Virus record (IMG/VR): IMGVR_UViG_2711768056_000005
Source of the DNA: a virus
Taxonomy: Duplodnaviria > Heunggongvirae > Uroviricota > Caudoviricetes
Strand: one strand, 5' to 3'
DNA: 64,000 bases
Position numbers and translations under genes: made by a program
Notes under the pieces: generated by a model
Told to the model about the DNA's origin: nothing
The model's input: the letters and a program-made list of their open reading frames with translations, nothing else
Databases searched by the model: none
Shown: positions 4,701 to 31,352 of the stretch, one piece after another
How the letters are laid out: the number at the start of each line of letters is the position of its first letter
How positions within the stretch are numbered: position 1 is the stretch's first letter

Positions 4701-7688
4701 ATGAGCTTAAGCGATCAGGTGGTGATGGCCACCAGCATAGAAACGCTGATCGAGCTGCTAAAAAACCTGCCCGATTATGGGCGGGTTTCGTATGTGGTGA
4801 CAGCGAAGGGAGACGAGGTAAAAACAGCGTTTGATATCGTCGATGCCTCAGCTCTTTTGGTATCCAATACTCTGGACGGGAAAATTAATCCGGACTATCC
4901 CCAGGAACTTCAGCCGCGCGACCGGACCCGCGCATCCAGCCTTCTTCAGGTTAACCAGATATCCAAGGATTTGCGGCCTGCTCAGCTTACCGATTCCGGT
5001 TTATCCAGCCATGGAGCGCCGATAATTGGTGAGGACAATGCCGTTGAGTCAGGTAATGGACGAACCATGGGGATCATTAAAGCCTATCAGGACGGCAATG
5101 CGGATCGGTATCGGGAGTACCTGATTGAACATGCGAGCGAATTCGGCATACGTCCTGAAAAGGTTGAATCAATGACGGCTCCGGTACTGGTGCGCCGCCG
5201 GTTAACTAAGGTTGACCGCGTTCAGTTTGCCAAAGACTCAAATATTTCTGATCTTCAGGAAATGGCAGCCAGTGAAAAGGCTTTTGTTGATGCCGACAGC
5301 ATAACACCGGCGATGATGGCGCTGTTTAATCCGTCAGAAAGCGGAGATCTGCTTAGCCGCAGTAATGACGCGTTTATTCGCGGATTCATGACGCAAGTTG
5401 GTGCCACACAGGCTGCTGGCCTTGTAACGGAAGATGGGCGACCAACGCGGCAACTTGTTGACCGTATACAAAACGCGATCTTTGCCAAGGCATATAAGGA
5501 TGCGCGCCTGGTAAGGATGGTTGCAGAAGAACCTGATCCGGATATGCGTAATGTTCTGACGGCGCTTAATGCGGCGGCCAATGATTTTGTACAGATGCAG
5601 GCTTTATCAGGAGAAGCGCACAAGCAGGCTGTGACAACTATCGTTGATGGTATTGAAACAGCGGATAGCCTCGATAAAAAGGCGCTGGCGGCATTGAAAG
5701 ATGCGGTAGACCTGGTAAGGCAATCGAAGGAGTCAGGCCAACATATTATCGATGTTATTGCTCAGGGGGATATGTTCAGCGAAACGGCCCCGGAAGTGAA
5801 AGCACTCGCGTTGTTCATCGTCGCGAATAACCGTAGTGCGAAGCGTATGGCCACCGCCTTTAAATTGATGGCTCAACGTATCAATGATGAGTTACAGCAC
5901 CAGGGCCAGGCGCTCGGGGATATGTTTGGCGGCGGCGATGTGTCGTTACAGGATATCCTTCGCCAGGTATCTCAGGAACTGGAAAACGAAGGTATGCAAG
6001 GGATATCCGGCGGTCTTTTCGAGTCAGCTTCCGGCGGTAGTTACAACGGTGTTGCTCCATATACCAGCTTGCTATTACATCGGGCATCCGGCATCAAAGA
6101 CATTATTCATCTGATCAGGCTGCTATCCCGCACCGATCCCCAGGATGAGCAGCTTGTACAAGTGCTTGCGCATTTTGTCCGAATGCCTGTTGCCGACGTA
6201 AAAAAATGGTGCCGATTATTCGGTATCAGCAATTCGTTACTTCGCGGATTGTTAAATCACGCATCCTCCCTTGGGCGCGACGGCTTTGATGAGATAGCGC
6301 AGGCGATAAAAAACGGAGATATGCCACCAGCTATTGACTGGTTTTCCATTCGCCCAACCAGGGTGAAAGCATTCCTTAGCGCGGCGCAATCAGCATCACC
6401 ATTGGCAGAAATGGTTCAGAGGTTGTCGCTCATATTCACAGATCATACCGCGTTGGGTGATCTGACTCTTGACGAGATGAAAGAAGCCTCCATTCAGTGG
6501 GCCGATCAACAAAATGAGGTTAACTCTGACTTCTTGCCAGCATTCAGGAAGGCCGTTAGTAAAGCGGATGATGCCCGTGGAATTCTGAAGGCATTTAAGG
6601 CATTGCAAAGTCGGGTTAATAAACATGTCGGTGATATCGATGGAGTAACGGCGGAAGGCAGGGATATCCTTAAAGAGCACGGCATAACGCCAGAGTTTAT
6701 TGATGAGATCAGGACGGATATGCAGCGTGAGGTCGTATCGTCCCTGCAAATTGTAGCCAGGGCGTTGGCGGATGCTAATCCGAAGAGTGCGGCCATTGTT
6801 AACCGGGTTATTGGTGATATTGAAGCATCGGAGGGCATGGGGGCGCTGAAACTCTTCCTTTCGCGAGCGTTTAATCCTAACGGCAATATTCTCCCTGGCA
6901 TTATTGGTGAGGCTAAAAAGTATGTCAGTGAAGAAGAACTTGAGCAGCTTGACCAACTACTTAAGCGATTCTCATATAACCCGCAGACACGCTGGCAAAT
7001 GAATCAGCGAAGTATGGGGTCGGTCCACGAGAAAGTGTTATCTGCCATGAACAGTGCGATCGCAAACTCATCCGTATCTGAAGAAAAAGCTCTTGAGTGG
7101 GCCGACTCTTTTATCACGGAAGAAGTGGAAGAAGCCCGCGCTGGACAGAATGGTGGGATAGACCTGCGCAAGGAACTTGCTGATATTTATCGCCTGACCG
7201 GCGGGAAAATATCGACCTTATCAAAGGTGATTCACCACCAGGGAAGGGCATATGCAAATCTAAATGGTGTTGTTGCTGTCAATTTGAACGATGAAAATGC
7301 AAGTGCACTGTGGCACGAGCTGGGTCATCATCTTGAGTACAGTAACCCTGGTTTGTTAGAGAAAGCCCGGTCATTCCTGAAGGCCAATGTTGAAGGGGAT
7401 AAGCCATCATTCGTCAATATCGGTGGGCGTGGCAAGCCTGAATGGTGCTTCAGATCTCGATTGAGTGATATTTATATGGCGAAGGTATACCCGCCTGTCT
7501 CAGTGAGTAATTCTGGTAAATTTCGACACAAATCTCCGACAATTTCCAAAACGTCAGCAACGGAAGTGTTCTCTATGGCTCTTCAGTTGTATCATGACAA
7601 AGAGGCCGCTGCCGCATCACTGATGAATGGTGACGGATTGCTGGAACTGTTATTAGGTGTGGCAAAGGAGCTAAATAATGCAGATTAA
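4701..7688 (+). CDS. ddrB: DdrB-like large protein of darA operon
   Basis: 995 aa ORF following ddrA; size and position consistent with P1 DdrB. Confidence 0.55.
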   Translation: MSLSDQVVMATSIETLIELLKNLPDYGRVSYVVTAKGDEVKTAFDIVDASALLVSNTLDGKINPDYPQELQPRDRTRASSLLQVNQISKDLRPAQLTDSGLSSHGAPIIGEDNAVESGNGRTMGIIKAYQDGNADRYREYLIEHASEFGIRPEKVESMTAPVLVRRRLTKVDRVQFAKDSNISDLQEMAASEKAFVDADSITPAMMALFNPSESGDLLSRSNDAFIRGFMTQVGATQAAGLVTEDGRPTRQLVDRIQNAIFAKAYKDARLVRMVAEEPDPDMRNVLTALNAAANDFVQMQALSGEAHKQAVTTIVDGIETADSLDKKALAALKDAVDLVRQSKESGQHIIDVIAQGDMFSETAPEVKALALFIVANNRSAKRMATAFKLMAQRINDELQHQGQALGDMFGGGDVSLQDILRQVSQELENEGMQGISGGLFESASGGSYNGVAPYTSLLLHRASGIKDIIHLIRLLSRTDPQDEQLVQVLAHFVRMPVADVKKWCRLFGISNSLLRGLLNHASSLGRDGFDEIAQAIKNGDMPPAIDWFSIRPTRVKAFLSAAQSASPLAEMVQRLSLIFTDHTALGDLTLDEMKEASIQWADQQNEVNSDFLPAFRKAVSKADDARGILKAFKALQSRVNKHVGDIDGVTAEGRDILKEHGITPEFIDEIRTDMQREVVSSLQIVARALADANPKSAAIVNRVIGDIEASEGMGALKLFLSRAFNPNGNILPGIIGEAKKYVSEEELEQLDQLLKRFSYNPQTRWQMNQRSMGSVHEKVLSAMNSAIANSSVSEEKALEWADSFITEEVEEARAGQNGGIDLRKELADIYRLTGGKISTLSKVIHHQGRAYANLNGVVAVNLNDENASALWHELGHHLEYSNPGLLEKARSFLKANVEGDKPSFVNIGGRGKPEWCFRSRLSDIYMAKVYPPVSVSNSGKFRHKSPTISKTSATEVFSMALQLYHDKEAAAASLMNGDGLLELLLGVAKELNNAD

Positions 7689-7989
7689 AATCGCAGCGCC
7701 ATTAGGCGGAGATGCCATTATCGAATTTGATGATAATGAAGAAGTTTCCGGGCGTTTAAGCATTATCTCCGGTGACATTACCGAGGACATGATCGCTGAA
7801 GCCATAGCTGGGGCAAATCCCAATAGCTATATGGGATTCGTTAACACCCTTGATGCTCCCGCAAGTGATGTTCTCCGAACGCTGCATCTTTACGCTGGCT
7901 GGTTTGTTGATTGGCCAGCAGTAGATGGTGGCGATGAGGACGACGACGACGATGATTTTGGTGATCATGTAGACCAGATCGTATATTGA
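7678..7989 (+). CDS. Hypothetical protein with poly-Asp C-terminus (last gene of darA operon)
   Basis: 103 aa; C-terminal DGGDEDDDDDDFGDH; overlaps ddrB stop. Confidence 0.45.
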   Translation: MQIKIAAPLGGDAIIEFDDNEEVSGRLSIISGDITEDMIAEAIAGANPNSYMGFVNTLDAPASDVLRTLHLYAGWFVDWPAVDGGDEDDDDDDFGDHVDQIVY

Positions 7990-7992
7990 AGA

Positions 7993-8019
7993 AATCCCGC
8001 CAATTGGCGGGATTTTTAC
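7993..8019. terminator. Bidirectional rho-independent terminator between darA operon and convergent gene
   Basis: 10-bp stem AAATCCCGCC/GGCGGGATTT with AATT loop followed by T-run. Confidence 0.6.
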
Positions 8020-8020
8020 C

Positions 8021-9115
8021 TCACGAGAAACTCTTTTCTGATGTCAGCCAACAGTGCTCGTGCATATCTCTTGGTGGTTTTTCGACAAATGCCTCTTCAG
8101 CCACATCCTGCCAGGGGATTTGTTTAGCCCATTCAGCTATAGCGTTATGGTTTGCCGAGAATAACGGTATTGTATAGGCCTTCAGCCAGTCTAATGTGCT
8201 GGAGTTGTGTTTTTGTGCGTGATGTTTCGCATGGTGTTTGGCGATCACGAGCGTAGGCACTACCCATTTACTACCGTCAGTCATTGTGAAGTGCATATTA
8301 CGGGGCACAGATGATTTTTCCATCAACTCGCGGACACCGGGAAATTCCCCTTTGATCAATCGGCGATATTTATCGCTATTGCACCCACCAAACTCTTTGG
8401 CTTTGTATTCAAGATATGCTTCAGAAACGAGAGGTGAATCCTCTGTGCTGAGAGTTATAGCCGTGAAAATACCAGCAGGATTGTTCTCACTATGGGCCAA
8501 CCGGTGATGCGAATCATAAAAATACCCTTTCTCTCGTTCCGATGGTTTCGACAGCAACAGCAGGCGCGAATCATAACCGGTCAAATTGCCTGTTATCACA
8601 GCATGAGCGCGGTCGCTGATTTCTGCCGCGTTAATAACGATGAAAAGATCATGCGGCCCAGTAAAACCAGCCAGAGATTCTTCGTTATTCAGACAATAGT
8701 TTAAATACACACATCCCCATGCTTCACTGATATGTACCAACCCTTTTTCAGGGTGCAGTTTGAAATGATTGCCAAGAAAAGGGTGTTTCTTGATAACCTG
8801 CGCCCAATAACAGCACATATAGTCAATTATATTGTTTCGACTATCGTTAATAGCAGGAGAAACAACCACTGTACGGGAACACGAATACAGTATTGTTTGC
8901 AGGATGCTAATCACTGCCACAATAGAGGTTTCCCCAATACCATGTGGTGTGGTGGCAGTGACTTTGGCTCCGGTGTTCTTTATCGCGTTAATAATTTTTG
9001 CCTGATGAGGTGTTAACTCAATATCAAGCAACTCTTTTGCTGCCAGTTCCCAATTGTCTTTATACCGTTCTATCAGTGCTAACCAGGCAGATTCATTCTG
9101 TATACGATTAATCAC
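8021..9115 (-). CDS. Paralog of terminase large subunit PacB ATPase domain (no nuclease domain)
   Basis: 364 aa; colinear similarity to PacB 28675-30159 in this window (TPHGIGETS vs SGHGTGKSD; YFYDSHHRLA vs [10 protein letters not shown]; FTAITLSTEDSPLV vs [14 protein letters not shown]). Confidence 0.7.
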   Translation of the reverse strand: MINRIQNESAWLALIERYKDNWELAAKELLDIELTPHQAKIINAIKNTGAKVTATTPHGIGETSIVAVISILQTILYSCSRTVVVSPAINDSRNNIIDYMCCYWAQVIKKHPFLGNHFKLHPEKGLVHISEAWGCVYLNYCLNNEESLAGFTGPHDLFIVINAAEISDRAHAVITGNLTGYDSRLLLLSKPSEREKGYFYDSHHRLAHSENNPAGIFTAITLSTEDSPLVSEAYLEYKAKEFGGCNSDKYRRLIKGEFPGVRELMEKSSVPRNMHFTMTDGSKWVVPTLVIAKHHAKHHAQKHNSSTLDWLKAYTIPLFSANHNAIAEWAKQIPWQDVAEEAFVEKPPRDMHEHCWLTSEKSFS

Positions 9116-10070
9116 TTTCCACCTCTTCCGTAGTGTTTTCTTGCAGTTCTGTTAATGCAGCACGACACAGGGTCCGGGCATTGGCTATAGCCACACTTTT
9201 GACTTCATCCGTCATCGTGCAGGTAATGTACTGATCGAGTTCTTCAGCACGGATGATGCTTTTGCCAATCAGAAACTGTATTTGCCAGAGCAGATCGGCA
9301 TCCATAATCAGAATTTCTGCCGGGCCTTCAGGGCCAGCCGGGAAGGAAACATAAGACTGTTTGCCCAGGCCGATAACTCGACAACTTGCTTCAAGAATTG
9401 CGCGCTTGAGGTCTGACTTTGTAACGGAAACAGGTTGGTTATCACCAGTGATTATGCCGTTGACATGGAAGTGGAAGGGCATGTAGCTTGAAATTCGCTC
9501 TACTTTCCATACGCCAGCAAGCGATCCTTCATGCAGCACAATGGGGGTAACCGCGAGTTTCATCTCACTATATAACTGCTGGCAGATAGCTGGATTGCTG
9601 AATACATCCAAAGGTTCACACTCAAACAGCGGCGCAATCTGCATGAGGTCCATCATCGTCATACCAGTGGTACGAGCAGTAATGAATCTGCGCATTCCAG
9701 TATCCATTGTGCGCCAGATAGCTACACCATGCTTTTTGCTCACTTCTTCAGTAAAGCCAAGGTGGCACATGATGGTTTTTTCGATAGCCAGATCAGAGAT
9801 AGAAACCTTTTCGCCTGGCACTCCATCATTATTGATGGTCACTTCGACACTCTGGCCATTACGTAGGCGGTATTGAATGGTTTTAGTATTTTGTGCTGTC
9901 ATAGTCTTTTCTCTGCTTAAAAACTGATGTAGTGCGCCTTCAGGTTGGTTAGGAATGTTTTCCCACCAGCGAAAGCAATATCTCGGGGTGTTCTTTTCGT
10001 GAAAAGCGCGTGCCATTGCCAACTTTGGCGTTTGTTTGCGAGTTCGTGCTTTTGTCGGCGTCTGGACCAC
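9108..10070 (-). CDS. Hypothetical protein upstream of PacB paralog
   Basis: 320-aa ORF; true start may be internal Met near 9905 (MTAQNTK...); no recognisable motif. Confidence 0.5.
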   Translation of the reverse strand: MVQTPTKARTRKQTPKLAMARAFHEKNTPRYCFRWWENIPNQPEGALHQFLSREKTMTAQNTKTIQYRLRNGQSVEVTINNDGVPGEKVSISDLAIEKTIMCHLGFTEEVSKKHGVAIWRTMDTGMRRFITARTTGMTMMDLMQIAPLFECEPLDVFSNPAICQQLYSEMKLAVTPIVLHEGSLAGVWKVERISSYMPFHFHVNGIITGDNQPVSVTKSDLKRAILEASCRVIGLGKQSYVSFPAGPEGPAEILIMDADLLWQIQFLIGKSIIRAEELDQYITCTMTDEVKSVAIANARTLCRAALTELQENTTEEVESD

Positions 10071-10099: not shown

Positions 10100-10588
10100 T
10101 CAAAACGGAATATCGTCGTCAAAGTCCATTGGAGGTTCGTTATTGGCGTTGCTCTGAGGTTTACCGCCACCACTGTATTGCTGGTGGTTTTGAGGTTGGT
10201 TTGATTGCCCCCAGCCATTTGAGGACTGTGAATCGTCACGGCGAGCGCCGATCATTTGCATGGTGCCTCCCTGGCTGACGATAATTTCCGTCGTGTAACG
10301 TTCTACACCGGCGTCATCTGTCCACTTACGGGTTTTAAGTTTCCCTTCGATGTAGACCTGAGAACCTTTTCGTAAATACTCACTCGCAATTTCAGCAAGT
10401 TTTCCGAACAAAACGACTTTATGCCATTCTGTTTGCTCTTTCTGTTGGCCCGTTTGCTTGTCGCGCCATGATTCATTCGTTGCGATGCTGAGTCTTCCGA
10501 CCGCGCCGCCATTTGGTATATACCTGATCTCCGGGTCTTGCCCCAGGGTACCAATCAGGATGACTTTGTTTACACCGCGTTGTGCCAC
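10100..10588 (-). CDS. ssb: Single-stranded DNA-binding protein
   Basis: 162 aa; OB-fold N-terminus, Gly/Gln-rich linker, canonical acidic tail DFDDDIPF. Confidence 0.95.
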
Positions 10589-10607: not shown

Positions 10608-10624
10608 AAATTAATTAGAGCAAT
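10608..10624 (-). promoter_or_regulatory. C1 operator (16/17 to ATTGCTCTAATAAATTT) in ssb/lyz divergent region
   Basis: AAATTAATTAGAGCAAT on plus strand. Confidence 0.6.
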
Positions 10625-28674: not shown

Positions 28675-30159
28675 TCATTCATTAAGCCATGCCAGAGCTT
28701 CATCAACCTGCGCTTCGTCTTCGACGCTAAGCACTTCATCCTGGGGAACATAATCCGCCAGCATAGCGAAACAATATGTATCCCAATGGTCTGGTGAGTG
28801 CAGGTTGAGTTTTTTCTTCATATCCTCCTTACTCATCACCTTCCATTGACCTGCGGAGTTAATCCCTACAGGGATTTTCGACGCTTCCTCAATAGTTTCA
28901 TTACCCTTATCCAGTCTCATACGACCAGATTTTACGGCCTCTGCGGCTTGAACATTGGCATAAGCACGTTTATCAAAGTACAGGCTCTTATCTTCACGGC
29001 TATGCATCTTTTTACCCCAGCGTATACGCTGTACGGTAATACCATAATACTCGTACATCAGATCCGCCGTTGCTTTACCCAGGCCATCGCCGTCTATCGC
29101 TATGGTGATATTGGGGAATCGCTCAGGATTACATTCTGCGAAAATTTTGGCGGCAAGCTGCGTTTCTGTAACGTCTGTGTATTCCAGCATTCGATAGTTG
29201 ATTACACGGCGTTTATTTCGCTGGCCGGACACCATCATGATATTGATAACGGACTTATCCCGTCCCGTACCACCAGCAACGTCCACACATGCAAGCCAGC
29301 CCCATCCTTTGGCAATCTTGACTTTCCGCCGCGTTGCACGTTCAACCTCATCACGTCCAAGAAGGAAGCCATCCTGTGATTTAGGGAATAGGCCGCGTAC
29401 CTTAATCATGTACATAGGGTTATCACGCCCGCCGTACTCCGCCAGCTTCATTTTGATAAATGCTGGCGTTACCAACGGTGATTCCTCACTGTTAAGCGTG
29501 ATCGCCGTATAAACGCCATCAGGGTTACCAGGACGCTTGGCCAGTTTATGGTGTGTATCGTAGAAATAGCCGCTTGGGCGTGTAGGCTGTGACAGCAATA
29601 AGATGCGGTTATCCTGTCCGGTAAGAGCACCGGTGATGATACCGAAAGCTCTATCACTGACACCGGAGGCTTCATCGATAATATACAGAAGATGATCTGC
29701 GTGTTCACCGGCGAGAGCTTCTTCACTTCCCAGACGAAAGCCCTTCGGTACTACAGTCCATACACCTTTACCAGTAATCTCATAGAAAGCGGTTTCTGTC
29801 AGAACAAAATAATCAGCAAGCCATGGGAAACGGCTGGTGGCAGTAGCCCAGTTTATCTTGATGTACTTGAATATACCGGTCATTACCTGCTGAATTTTGT
29901 TCGCAACGATAATGGCACAGGCACCTGGATACATGATTATGAACAACATGATCATGATAGAAGTCATGTCTGATTTCCCGGTACCGTGACCAGACGAAAC
30001 AGATGTCTTGCTACCCTGTTCCTGCACAGACTCAATAATCAGATCCTGCTGCCAGGTAGGTGTTTTGCCGAACAAAACATCAGCGGCAGCAATCCAGTCA
30101 TAACGATATAGCGCCACCAGCTCGCGCCAACGTGGATCCGTTACGCAACTTCTGGCCAT
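28675..30159 (-). CDS. pacB: Terminase large subunit PacB
   Basis: 494 aa; Walker A-like SGHGTGKSD, nuclease-domain acidic motifs ([22 protein letters not shown]). Confidence 0.93.
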
Positions 30160-31352
30160 TAATCATCATCCCCGTATAGCTTGCGGGTAACTTCTTCGTC
30201 TTCCTCCTCGTCTTCGTCCAGGTCTTGTTCCAGCCATGGGTCGTTTGATACACCTTCAGTATCAACATCTCCATAACCGCCTGTATCAACGATATCGGCG
30301 ATTTCTTCCCTACGCTGCTCAATCCACAATGCGGCATCGGCGCGGCGGTTGGCGGCCCGTTCTCGCGCAACTTTGTCCAGATCTTCAAGAGAAGGACCAC
30401 CGACGGCAGTTTGCCTTTCCTCATCATCGGTATTGGTCTTAGGAGCACGCAGATCGGCTTTGATTTGCTCCAGCATCAGGGGCGGCACTTTCCCGCCATG
30501 CGCCTCGATAAATTCAGCTGCTTCCAGCACTGACCAGTTATTTTCACGCTTTCGTTCGTATGCCAGCTTAACAATGCCAGCTTGCCCCATAGACAAAGCG
30601 TGCTTTTCCGCCTCCCGGCTTTCTTTTCGATAGTTATTCCGGATGCTGTAAATGGTGTTGATCAGACTGCTTATCTGCGCGGAACAGCTGTTTAGCATGC
30701 TCGCGATACGGTATTCAGGCGGAGTACCTTCATCATCGGCTTTTTGCTGATCGCGCATTTCCTGCACCAGGCGAATACACGTATCCCTGGCGTTCTCCAG
30801 CATAAGGAGATGAGAAAGAGACTTTTCCAGAAGAGTGGTTTCCAGAACATCGGCCCCGGACCGACGCAACATAGCGCGCGCGGCCTTCCGCGCTTCAACG
30901 TTATCTATCAGGTAATCGCCAGCTTCGAATTCAAAGCGTTCACCATCATCATCCAGGGTGTCGCGTTCCAGGCGATCACGCAAGGTCCGGTGGGCACGGG
31001 TGATCACGTCATGATCATCAGAACGATCATTTATGCGCTTATTTTGGCGCTTCGCATTCTCGACTGCGACACTGACAATGGCATTAACCCTTTGTTTTTC
31101 TGCTATTTCAGCCGCAATGTGATCACCGGAATGTTGATCATTAGAGTGATCAATGATCATGCTTTTTAGTGGCTTCCTGACTGGCTTATTTGGCTTGCGG
31201 CTGTCCGCTGTCCTGGTGTCTTCTTTGAAGGCACGGAGATAACGACGTGCGGTATTAGGGTTAAGATTAAACTCGGCGGCATACTGTGCGATGGTGTAAC
31301 CACCATCTCGCGCCAGGCGAGCAAAATTCTTCTTGTGATCGTCCCAGGTCAC
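30159..31352 (-). CDS. pacA: Terminase small subunit / pac-recognition protein PacA
   Basis: 397 aa; contains the pac site; highly acidic C-terminus; overlaps pacB start. Confidence 0.9.
30970..31160. other. pac packaging-initiation site (two clusters of TGATCA/TGATCG hexamers carrying Dam GATC sites)
   Basis: Hexamers at 30974, 31001, 31012, 31024 and at 31120, 31135, 31148, 31154 inside pacA. Confidence 0.85.

Follow-up and report, generated by a model that had tools for sequence, protein, structure and literature searches.

No proteins of tailed phages are more conserved than the large terminases, which are also a main target of bacterial innate immune sensors. In phage P1 the large subunit is PacB, encoded in the late pacAB operon. 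Small stand-alone proteins that resemble the terminase ATPase domain have also been described, namely vs.8 of phage T4 and Ksap1 and Ksap2 of Klebsiella phages, which are accessory-gene products restricted to one lineage and which activate the sensor Avs2 (PMC13601566). Here we describe a likewise small, terminase-derived protein of a P1-like element. The window, that is, the whole stretch of 64,000 nucleotides analysed from the virus record IMGVR_UViG_2711768056_000005, contains on its minus strand, at 8021..9115, a GTG-initiated gene of 364 amino acids (aa) in a region that is 96–97% identical to P1-like phages and phage-plasmids. The list of open reading frames (ORFs), paralogy to PacB and the existence of intact orthologs under purifying selection all identify it as a coding sequence. 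Judged from its sequence, this gene encodes a conserved PacB-derived pseudo-enzyme that has kept the ATPase fold, has lost both the catalytic apparatus and the nuclease domain, and has been fused to an additional domain of ~95 aa. We refer to it below as the pseudo-terminase.

The window also encodes PacB itself, the active, full-length terminase large subunit of 494 aa with canonical Walker motifs, both A and B, and a nuclease domain (28675..30159, minus strand), together with pacA (30159-31352). BLASTP of the pseudo-terminase against this PacB returned 95 identities over 266 aa (36%), 58% positives and an E-value of 2e-55, in a colinear alignment of residues 11-272 with residues 11-274 of PacB; similarity to PacB ends at residue 272. 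A preliminary description of this DNA had proposed a paralog of the PacB ATPase domain that lacks the nuclease, and both this alignment and the fold model described below bear it out. Its estimate that roughly half of the residues are identical holds for the best blocks but is too high for the protein overall. The similarity, far above chance, spans the whole ATPase domain, so that it is not restricted to a generic P-loop, as that description had allowed it might be; what is not conserved is the P-loop itself. Both proteins fall into PHROG 5902, and the pacB lineage is, on these sequence comparisons, the one from which the paralog derives. The G+C content of the pseudo-terminase gene (44.3%, and 43.5% in its ATPase-like part) is below that of pacB (48.0%) and the window average (48.7%).

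The colinear homology with PacB of P1 is accompanied by the same predicted fold. An AlphaFold2 model built from an 86-sequence alignment had a mean predicted local distance difference test (pLDDT) score of 87.4, with values of ~97 over residues 1-260 and of 70–77 across most of the tail. Foldseek matches of this model were ATPase domains of large terminase subunits (TerL), with Sf6 gp2 (E 3.5e-9), D6E, HK97, P74-26 and T4 gp17 among them; the template modelling scores were 0.67 for P74-26 (target-normalised) and 0.53 for T4 gp17, and the best matches in the viral structure library BFVD were overwhelmingly annotated as large terminases. The model thus confidently predicts a TerL-type N-terminal ASCE P-loop ATPase fold, and residues 1-262 (8330..9115, minus strand) can be delimited as a TerL ATPase-like domain on the basis of the pLDDT and of the Foldseek matches.

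What sets the pseudo-terminase apart from PacB is the lack of the Walker A Lys, of the Walker B Asp-Glu pair and of the RNase-H-like domain, and the possession of an extra, unrelated C-terminal domain. In the alignment, the PacB Walker A GHGTGKS faces PHGIGETS (8924..8947, minus strand) and the Walker B YIIDEAS faces FIVINAA, the longer remnant LFIVINAA (LYIIDEAS in PacB) lying at 8624..8647 on the same strand. The charge of the Walker A Lys is thereby reversed, with Glu in its position, and Asn-Ala (Ile/Asn-Ala in the aligned columns) stands where the Walker B Asp-Glu would be. The register of the Walker A remnant is supported by the alignments and by the family profile, which aligns the P-loop to the Walker A of Sf6 gp2, and that of the Walker B remnant by the alignments and by column conservation. 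The extent of the loss was assessed in a wider set of homologs. A word-indexed search had yielded 3 proteins only, and the family emerged from an exhaustive HMMER search that found 696 relatives; 84 of the best matches were aligned and split into 71 canonical relatives, nearly all of them full-length (~450–580 aa), and a short group. The residues replaced in the 364-aa protein include, with their frequencies in the 71 canonical relatives, the Walker A Lys at position 62 and the Walker B Glu at position 162 (100% each), His at 152 (97%), Gly at 57 (96%), Asp at 161 and Ser at 56 (92% each), and Gln at 91 and the C-motif Thr at 192 (89% each). The lost active-site residues are 82–100% conserved in the canonical relatives and rare or absent in the short group, Lys being present in the Walker A column in 71 of 71 canonical relatives versus 0 of 11 clade members. 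Structural positions such as Q38, G59, G61, G150, G197, F199, S227 and P228 are kept in both groups. Moreover, the active-site replacements vary from one member of the short group to another, which indicates relaxed constraint on a disused site. We infer that the 364-aa protein is non-catalytic and has no ATPase activity, and the earlier idea of a second terminase-like ATPase does not survive these losses.

Do these features make the protein a relative of vs.8? The two resemble each other in being small terminase-ATPase-like proteins, but vs.8 keeps both Walker A (GGRQSGKS) and Walker B (IIDE), whereas the pseudo-terminase family has lost both. Two further differences from vs.8 are the domain added to the C-terminus of the pseudo-terminase and its coupling to a partner, IsaA. 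The profile of the clade showed no sequence relation to vs.8 (hhalign probability 0.3%), and the two probably had independent origins.

The motif losses are shared by 13 proteins, the 364-aa protein and 12 further short relatives. This family comprises the window protein and its 91%-identical allele, orthologs of 366–438 aa at 48–52% identity, proteins of 230–268 aa that end exactly at the ATPase-domain boundary, and a single protein of 444 aa whose extension is of another kind. Neighbour-joining united 12 of the 13 in one clade, with the PacB-like terminases as its sister group; support was modest, at 52/100 bootstraps for the 12 and 40/100 for a core of 10. The remaining one, P0059 (268 aa), also has degenerate Walker motifs but falls with another branch of canonical terminases and looks like an independent case, so that loss of catalysis and of the nuclease may have arisen more than once. 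Two distant members of the clade, P0044 and P0063 (loci L014 and L015), carry G-R-S where G-K-S is canonical and have Asp-Asn instead of Asp-Glu in Walker B, a pattern that resembles classical mutants that bind ATP and are dead for hydrolysis; each of the two genes precedes an overlapping small ORF that runs off the end of the contig. The family has so far been seen only in P1-like elements and, wherever enough sequence was available, a canonical pacB was also present in the same element. Proteins of the dead clade are 30–41% identical to the PacB of their own element and to foreign PacBs alike. This comparison gave no sign of co-evolution or gene conversion with the cognate PacB, and the equal distances fit one old duplication.

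Of the features expected of a TerL protein, the pseudo-terminase thus shows the fold and fails in Walker A, Walker B, the nuclease domain and location in a packaging module. Because these four testable features fail, the label "terminase large subunit" given to it in GenBank record MH422554 is misleading. The PacB encoded at 28675-30159, for its part, matches no Pfam or NCBIfam model, and its PHROG is labelled 'unknown function', which means that automated annotation can miss the real terminase of P1-like elements.

The C-terminal domain comprises residues 270-364 (8024..8308, minus strand). It had been described as an unrelated His/Lys-rich tail. It is indeed unrelated to the nuclease domain, but it is not an arbitrary extension, since residues 272-361 match the C-terminus of phrog_17928 (E 3e-13) and the domain has stand-alone homologs. 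With tblastn, the same ~95 aa were found as a stand-alone protein of 98 aa (gp35), encoded beside the DnaB helicase gene of Cronobacter phage JK004, and as the C-terminus of a 511-aa coiled-coil protein (ORF36) in Xanthomonas phage CP2 and its relatives; P0130 is another stand-alone homolog. Residues 270-364 align over their full length with this family, from which the present version differs in being fused to a dead terminase domain. An alignment of five tails had 21 invariant columns, and the motifs that residues 270-364 share with the family are MxDGSxWxVP, PLF, (D/E)WA and W..(G/S)E(K/Y). A search with the profile of this alignment found at least 1,111 protein clusters, with best E-values of 1e-42 to 1e-32, and among the 120 best clusters listed nearly all were 94–115 aa long and none had a Pfam annotation. 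No solved structure matched the tail by sequence. The motif KHHAKHHAQKHN occupies residues 293-304, and a His/Lys-rich helix lies inside the domain at 8210-8254 (minus strand). This richness in His and Lys is specific to the P1-like version, the family conserving there only an A..(Y/H)A pattern. The surroundings of two stand-alone homologs were inspected, and both proved to be encoded in early accessory regions of lambdoid prophages, with DUF551 genes nearby and, for one of them, dnaB and ninB on either side; tail-family loci include L004:5004-5300, L003:2765-4300, L096:5001-5315 and L098:5001-5324. On this evidence, the tail is best described as a separate domain of ~95 aa belonging to a large unannotated family, most of whose members appear to be stand-alone early accessory phage proteins.

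A different origin of the tail was also considered. MAFFT had placed it on the last strands of the PacB nuclease, as if it were a nuclease relic left by an internal deletion, but comparison of the tail with the PacB nuclease domain gave an hhalign probability of 0.1%, and the tail belongs to an independent family; the same comparison leaves the 364-aa protein with no detectable RNase-H-like nuclease domain. The tail is not a constant companion of the ATPase-like part, as a close relative, P0019, has none. Between two elements of the second lineage described below, L023 and L006 (gene at 6001-7101), the nonsynonymous divergence (dN) is 0.41 in the ATPase-like part and 0.013 in the tail, a disparity that implies recombination at the domain boundary.

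Is the pseudo-terminase a gene or a leftover? All orthologs examined have an intact frame of 364–366 codons, down to 48–52% identity. Pairwise ratios of nonsynonymous to synonymous substitution rates (dN/dS) were 0.13–0.30 for the whole gene, 0.15–0.30 for the ATPase-like part and 0.10–0.37 for the tail. The search of P1-like genomes for orthologs, as the preliminary description had proposed, was productive. In PLSDB, 336 plasmids matched a query made of isaA and the pseudo-terminase gene; ~120 of them had both genes and the others isaA only, and 119 of 120 matching plasmids carried the pseudo-terminase gene at full length. Among 5,426 complete E. coli genomes, 100 contained it, in 101 copies that were full-length without exception (101/101), 99 of them on plasmids and all 101 annotated as "hypothetical protein". 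Natural carriers include the plasmid NZ_KU980950, which is 99.8% identical over isaA and the pseudo-terminase gene, and the phage vB_EcoM-813R1. These plasmid and genome counts depend on the megablast thresholds. Intact frames, dN/dS of 0.13–0.30 and full-length copies together rule out a pseudogene fragment of pacB, an outcome that would have undone the original proposal. Neither P1 nor P7 has the gene, and it is missing from about two thirds of the isaA-carrying plasmids; for classical P1 the absence was established by DNA alignment and confirms a doubt already voiced in the preliminary description. In this lineage, the pseudo-terminase gene seems never to occur without isaA, which itself often occurs alone. 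The isaA region is a known variable region (PMC6906374, PMC9603915), and its genes are non-essential by CRISPR interference (PMC10695390). In P1-like phage-plasmids, the pseudo-terminase gene is thus a cassette that can be dispensed with, set in this variable region.

The genetic setting is also unlike that of pacB: the dispensable pseudo-terminase gene lies in what appears to be an early ssb/isaA operon, whereas PacB belongs to the late pacAB operon. It is located 19.5 kb from pacA-pacB, between hxr/ddrB and isaA/ssb, and converges on the Dar anti-restriction operon, whose hxr-ddrB end it faces. The gene had been described as encoded next to ssb, which is nearby (10100..10588, minus strand; identified from the ORF list and by comparison with P1) but separated from it by one gene, isaA. 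The co-orientation and overlap reported for the upstream ORF are correct: isaA, at its stop, shares 8 nt with the GTG-initiated start of the pseudo-terminase gene (GAGGTGGAAAGTGATTAA), and a ribosome-binding site, GAGGTGG, precedes the GTG by 4 nt. The 320-aa length given for that ORF (9108-10070) corresponds to an existing mechanical reading frame that is probably over-extended by 56 codons (9903-10070), because homologs, PHROG 2326 and the MH422554 annotation all begin at Met57 (ATG at 9902). Comparison with P1 identifies the product as IsaA, most likely of 264 aa from Met57 (9108..9902, minus strand), and this start leaves an untranslated gap of 197 nt after ssb. The suggestion that the upstream ORF might supply an RNase-H-like nuclease found no support, either in hhalign (probability 1.9%) or in a profile search of the PDB (best E 0.25).

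Upstream of ssb, the first gene of the presumed operon, the C1 repressor operator Ossb/Op21, ATTGCTCTAATTAATTT, can be read at 10608..10624 (minus strand), and colinear alignment maps it onto the operator annotated in P1 (NC_005856). A scan of the minus strand from ssb to the end of the pseudo-terminase gene detected no terminator-like site. A promoter scan gave only one promoter-like match, at 8599-8570 (minus strand) inside the pseudo-terminase gene, a smaller number of matches than shuffled controls gave on average. From this anatomy we presume that ssb, isaA and the pseudo-terminase gene form one early, C1-controlled operon, and expression is predicted on that basis. The pair formed by isaA and the pseudo-terminase is kept in a second P1-like lineage at 47–52% identity. 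Searches of PADLOC, Pfam and NCBIfam returned no match for the pseudo-terminase, IsaA or the tail.

When the window is aligned with P1, DNA homology breaks off precisely where isaA ends and is restored at hxr; between these points P1 has IS1 and isaB. The cargo of this slot varies: IS1 plus isaB in P1 (L001:2599-4105, NC_005856), nothing in many plasmids and the pseudo-terminase in the window (7988-9106). The P1 IsaB protein, which has no Pfam match, was examined as a possible IS1-truncated remnant of the pseudo-terminase; this was ruled out, as the two proteins are unrelated (E 0.13) and DNA homology breaks at the end of isaA. Some E. coli elements have a Tad2-like gene (PF11195, 80 bits) between ssb and isaA. 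The second lineage, which has a C1 repressor, a Cre-like integrase and phd/doc, carries genes for a dUTPase, a Tad2-like protein, IsaA (47%) and the pseudo-terminase (48–52%) at another genomic position, downstream of the integrase. A gene with a Tad2-like (Thoeris anti-defence 2, PF11195, 78–80 bits) C-terminal domain is therefore found directly upstream of isaA in two genomic positions and two lineages (L018:4422-5219, L006:4515-5201, L099:3590-4234); the window has no such gene.

The tail-less relatives have other neighbours. The gene for P0026 (263 aa) shares 4 nt with the 3' end of one encoding a Ref-type RecA-dependent nuclease of 222 aa (PF16786, 120 bits; L008:5336-6792, also in L009 and L010), and an IsaA-like ORF lies 3 kb upstream of this pair in the same element (L008:2361-3035, hmmsearch E 6e-16). 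P0021 (264 aa) comes directly after a gene for a 318-aa radical S-adenosylmethionine (SAM) protein (L005:5027-6795), which has weak similarity to MoaA and to prokaryotic viperins. Other tail-less relatives lie in long arrays of small accessory genes. The dead-terminase family was never seen in a packaging module, always among accessory-gene arrays.

What might such a protein do? A binding role in genetic conflict is suggested because the protein is under selection, has a non-catalytic fold and a fused accessory domain, and is encoded by a dispensable, patchily distributed gene in an early operon. We tentatively propose, as the single most likely mechanism although one that is less probable than not, that the pseudo-terminase is a binding mimic of the terminase ATPase domain with a counter-defence role. 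It would be produced at an early stage of lytic growth, ahead of the late terminase, and would work through binding alone, by mimicking the ATPase domain of PacB. The role would be accessory, in genetic conflict rather than in core packaging. [quoted passage not shown] Lacking a nucleotide site, the protein could occupy, or escape, sensors that read terminase-bound ATP, and the C-terminal domain and IsaA would add contacts. A narrower version, in which it is a nucleotide-free decoy that is made early and neutralises Avs1-3/Upx before the real terminase appears, seems to us rather improbable. The ATPase domain of the terminase is by itself sufficient to trigger Avs2 and Upx, both Avs2 and Avs3 sense the ATP held in the active site of the terminase, and the stand-alone T4 vs.8 and Ksap1/2 enter the Avs2 pocket and were suggested by the authors of that study to act in anti-defence (PMC13601566). 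Counter-defence by mimicry is also favoured by the neighbourhood, with the Dar operon, the Tad2-like gene and the early lambdoid location of tail homologs, and by the patchy presence. Several points weigh on the other side. The link between the pseudo-terminase and immune sensors is hypothetical, and PADLOC and the other family libraries contain no match for the protein. The argument from the Tad2-like gene amounts to guilt by association, and the window lacks that gene. A protein that binds an Avs sensor could trigger it instead of blocking it, and loss of the ATP site may mean that the protein is invisible to the sensors and has another job. Finally, early expression is deduced from operon anatomy and the P1 annotation.

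Other roles have to be set against counter-defence by mimicry. The dead ATPase domain might bind PacA or join PacB assemblies as a dominant-negative subunit, and so modulate or poison packaging, either delaying the element's own pac cleavage and packaging early in lytic growth or interfering with a competing P1-like element. We place this next in probability, while considering it unlikely. The protein is a paralog of the element's own PacB that has kept the ATPase-domain fold and many non-catalytic core and surface positions, its family goes together with a canonical PacB, and interference of parasitic elements with packaging motors is known (PMC11417361). However, a gene missing from P1, P7 and about two thirds of isaA plasmids does not belong to the core control of packaging, its product is no closer to cognate than to foreign PacBs, which suggests no co-evolution or partner discrimination, and it never lies in the packaging module. 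Only slightly lower we rank, as a doubtful alternative, an accessory role in DNA metabolism, in which the protein would be a non-catalytic scaffold that binds DNA or protein and works with SSB, IsaA or, in relatives, a Ref-type nuclease in early replication or recombination. The shared operon with ssb would fit such a role, as would the 4-nt overlap of a tail-less relative with the PF16786 nuclease gene, the position of stand-alone tail homologs next to DnaB helicase genes and the weak match of the CP2 fusion partner to DUF1351; the adjacent gene varies, though, encoding IsaA, a Ref-like nuclease or a radical SAM enzyme where there is one at all, which speaks against a single fixed replication partner, the pseudo-terminase gene is dispensable and patchy, and no DNA-binding motif was identified in the protein.

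A working ATPase with a non-canonical active site, serving as a second packaging or translocation motor as the preliminary description had imagined, is very improbable. The protein does keep the glycines of the P-loop and, upstream of them, the Gln (Q38), and the two distant clade members with a G-R-S triad keep the Walker B Asp, but the change of Lys to Glu and the loss of the Walker B Asp-Glu are joined by those of His152, Gln91 and the C-motif Thr, and the replacements differ among clade members as expected of relaxed, not re-engineered, sites. Least credible of all is a functionless, decaying remnant of a pacB duplication. Truncation, the missing catalytic motifs, non-essentiality and patchiness would be natural in such a remnant, yet the frame stays intact at 364–366 codons to 48–52% identity, dN/dS is 0.13–0.30 with both domains constrained, full-length copies exist in 120 plasmids and in complete E. 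coli genomes, 100 of them, a ribosome-binding site is coupled to the start and the fold model is confident.

Why has this protein gone unnoticed? Classical P1 does not have the gene, and our literature search found no description of a dead or truncated terminase paralog in P1-like elements. A selected, dead and nuclease-less copy of the terminase thus appears to have been overlooked in a well-studied phage family, the databases listing it as "hypothetical" or, wrongly, as "terminase large subunit". Its recognition defines a family of terminase-derived pseudo-enzymes, together with a large unannotated family of ~100-aa phage domains, and corrects gene annotation in P1-like plasmids, elements that commonly carry resistance genes in Enterobacteriaceae. 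If it is true that the mimic handles terminase sensors or the packaging machinery, it would provide a testable handle on how phages shield a target that they cannot change. Should the more specific decoy function hold, the pseudo-terminase would be the first anti-defence protein made by disabling a copy of the very viral protein that is sensed, and its partners, IsaA, the Ref-like nuclease and the radical SAM enzyme, would mark a modular family of mimics.

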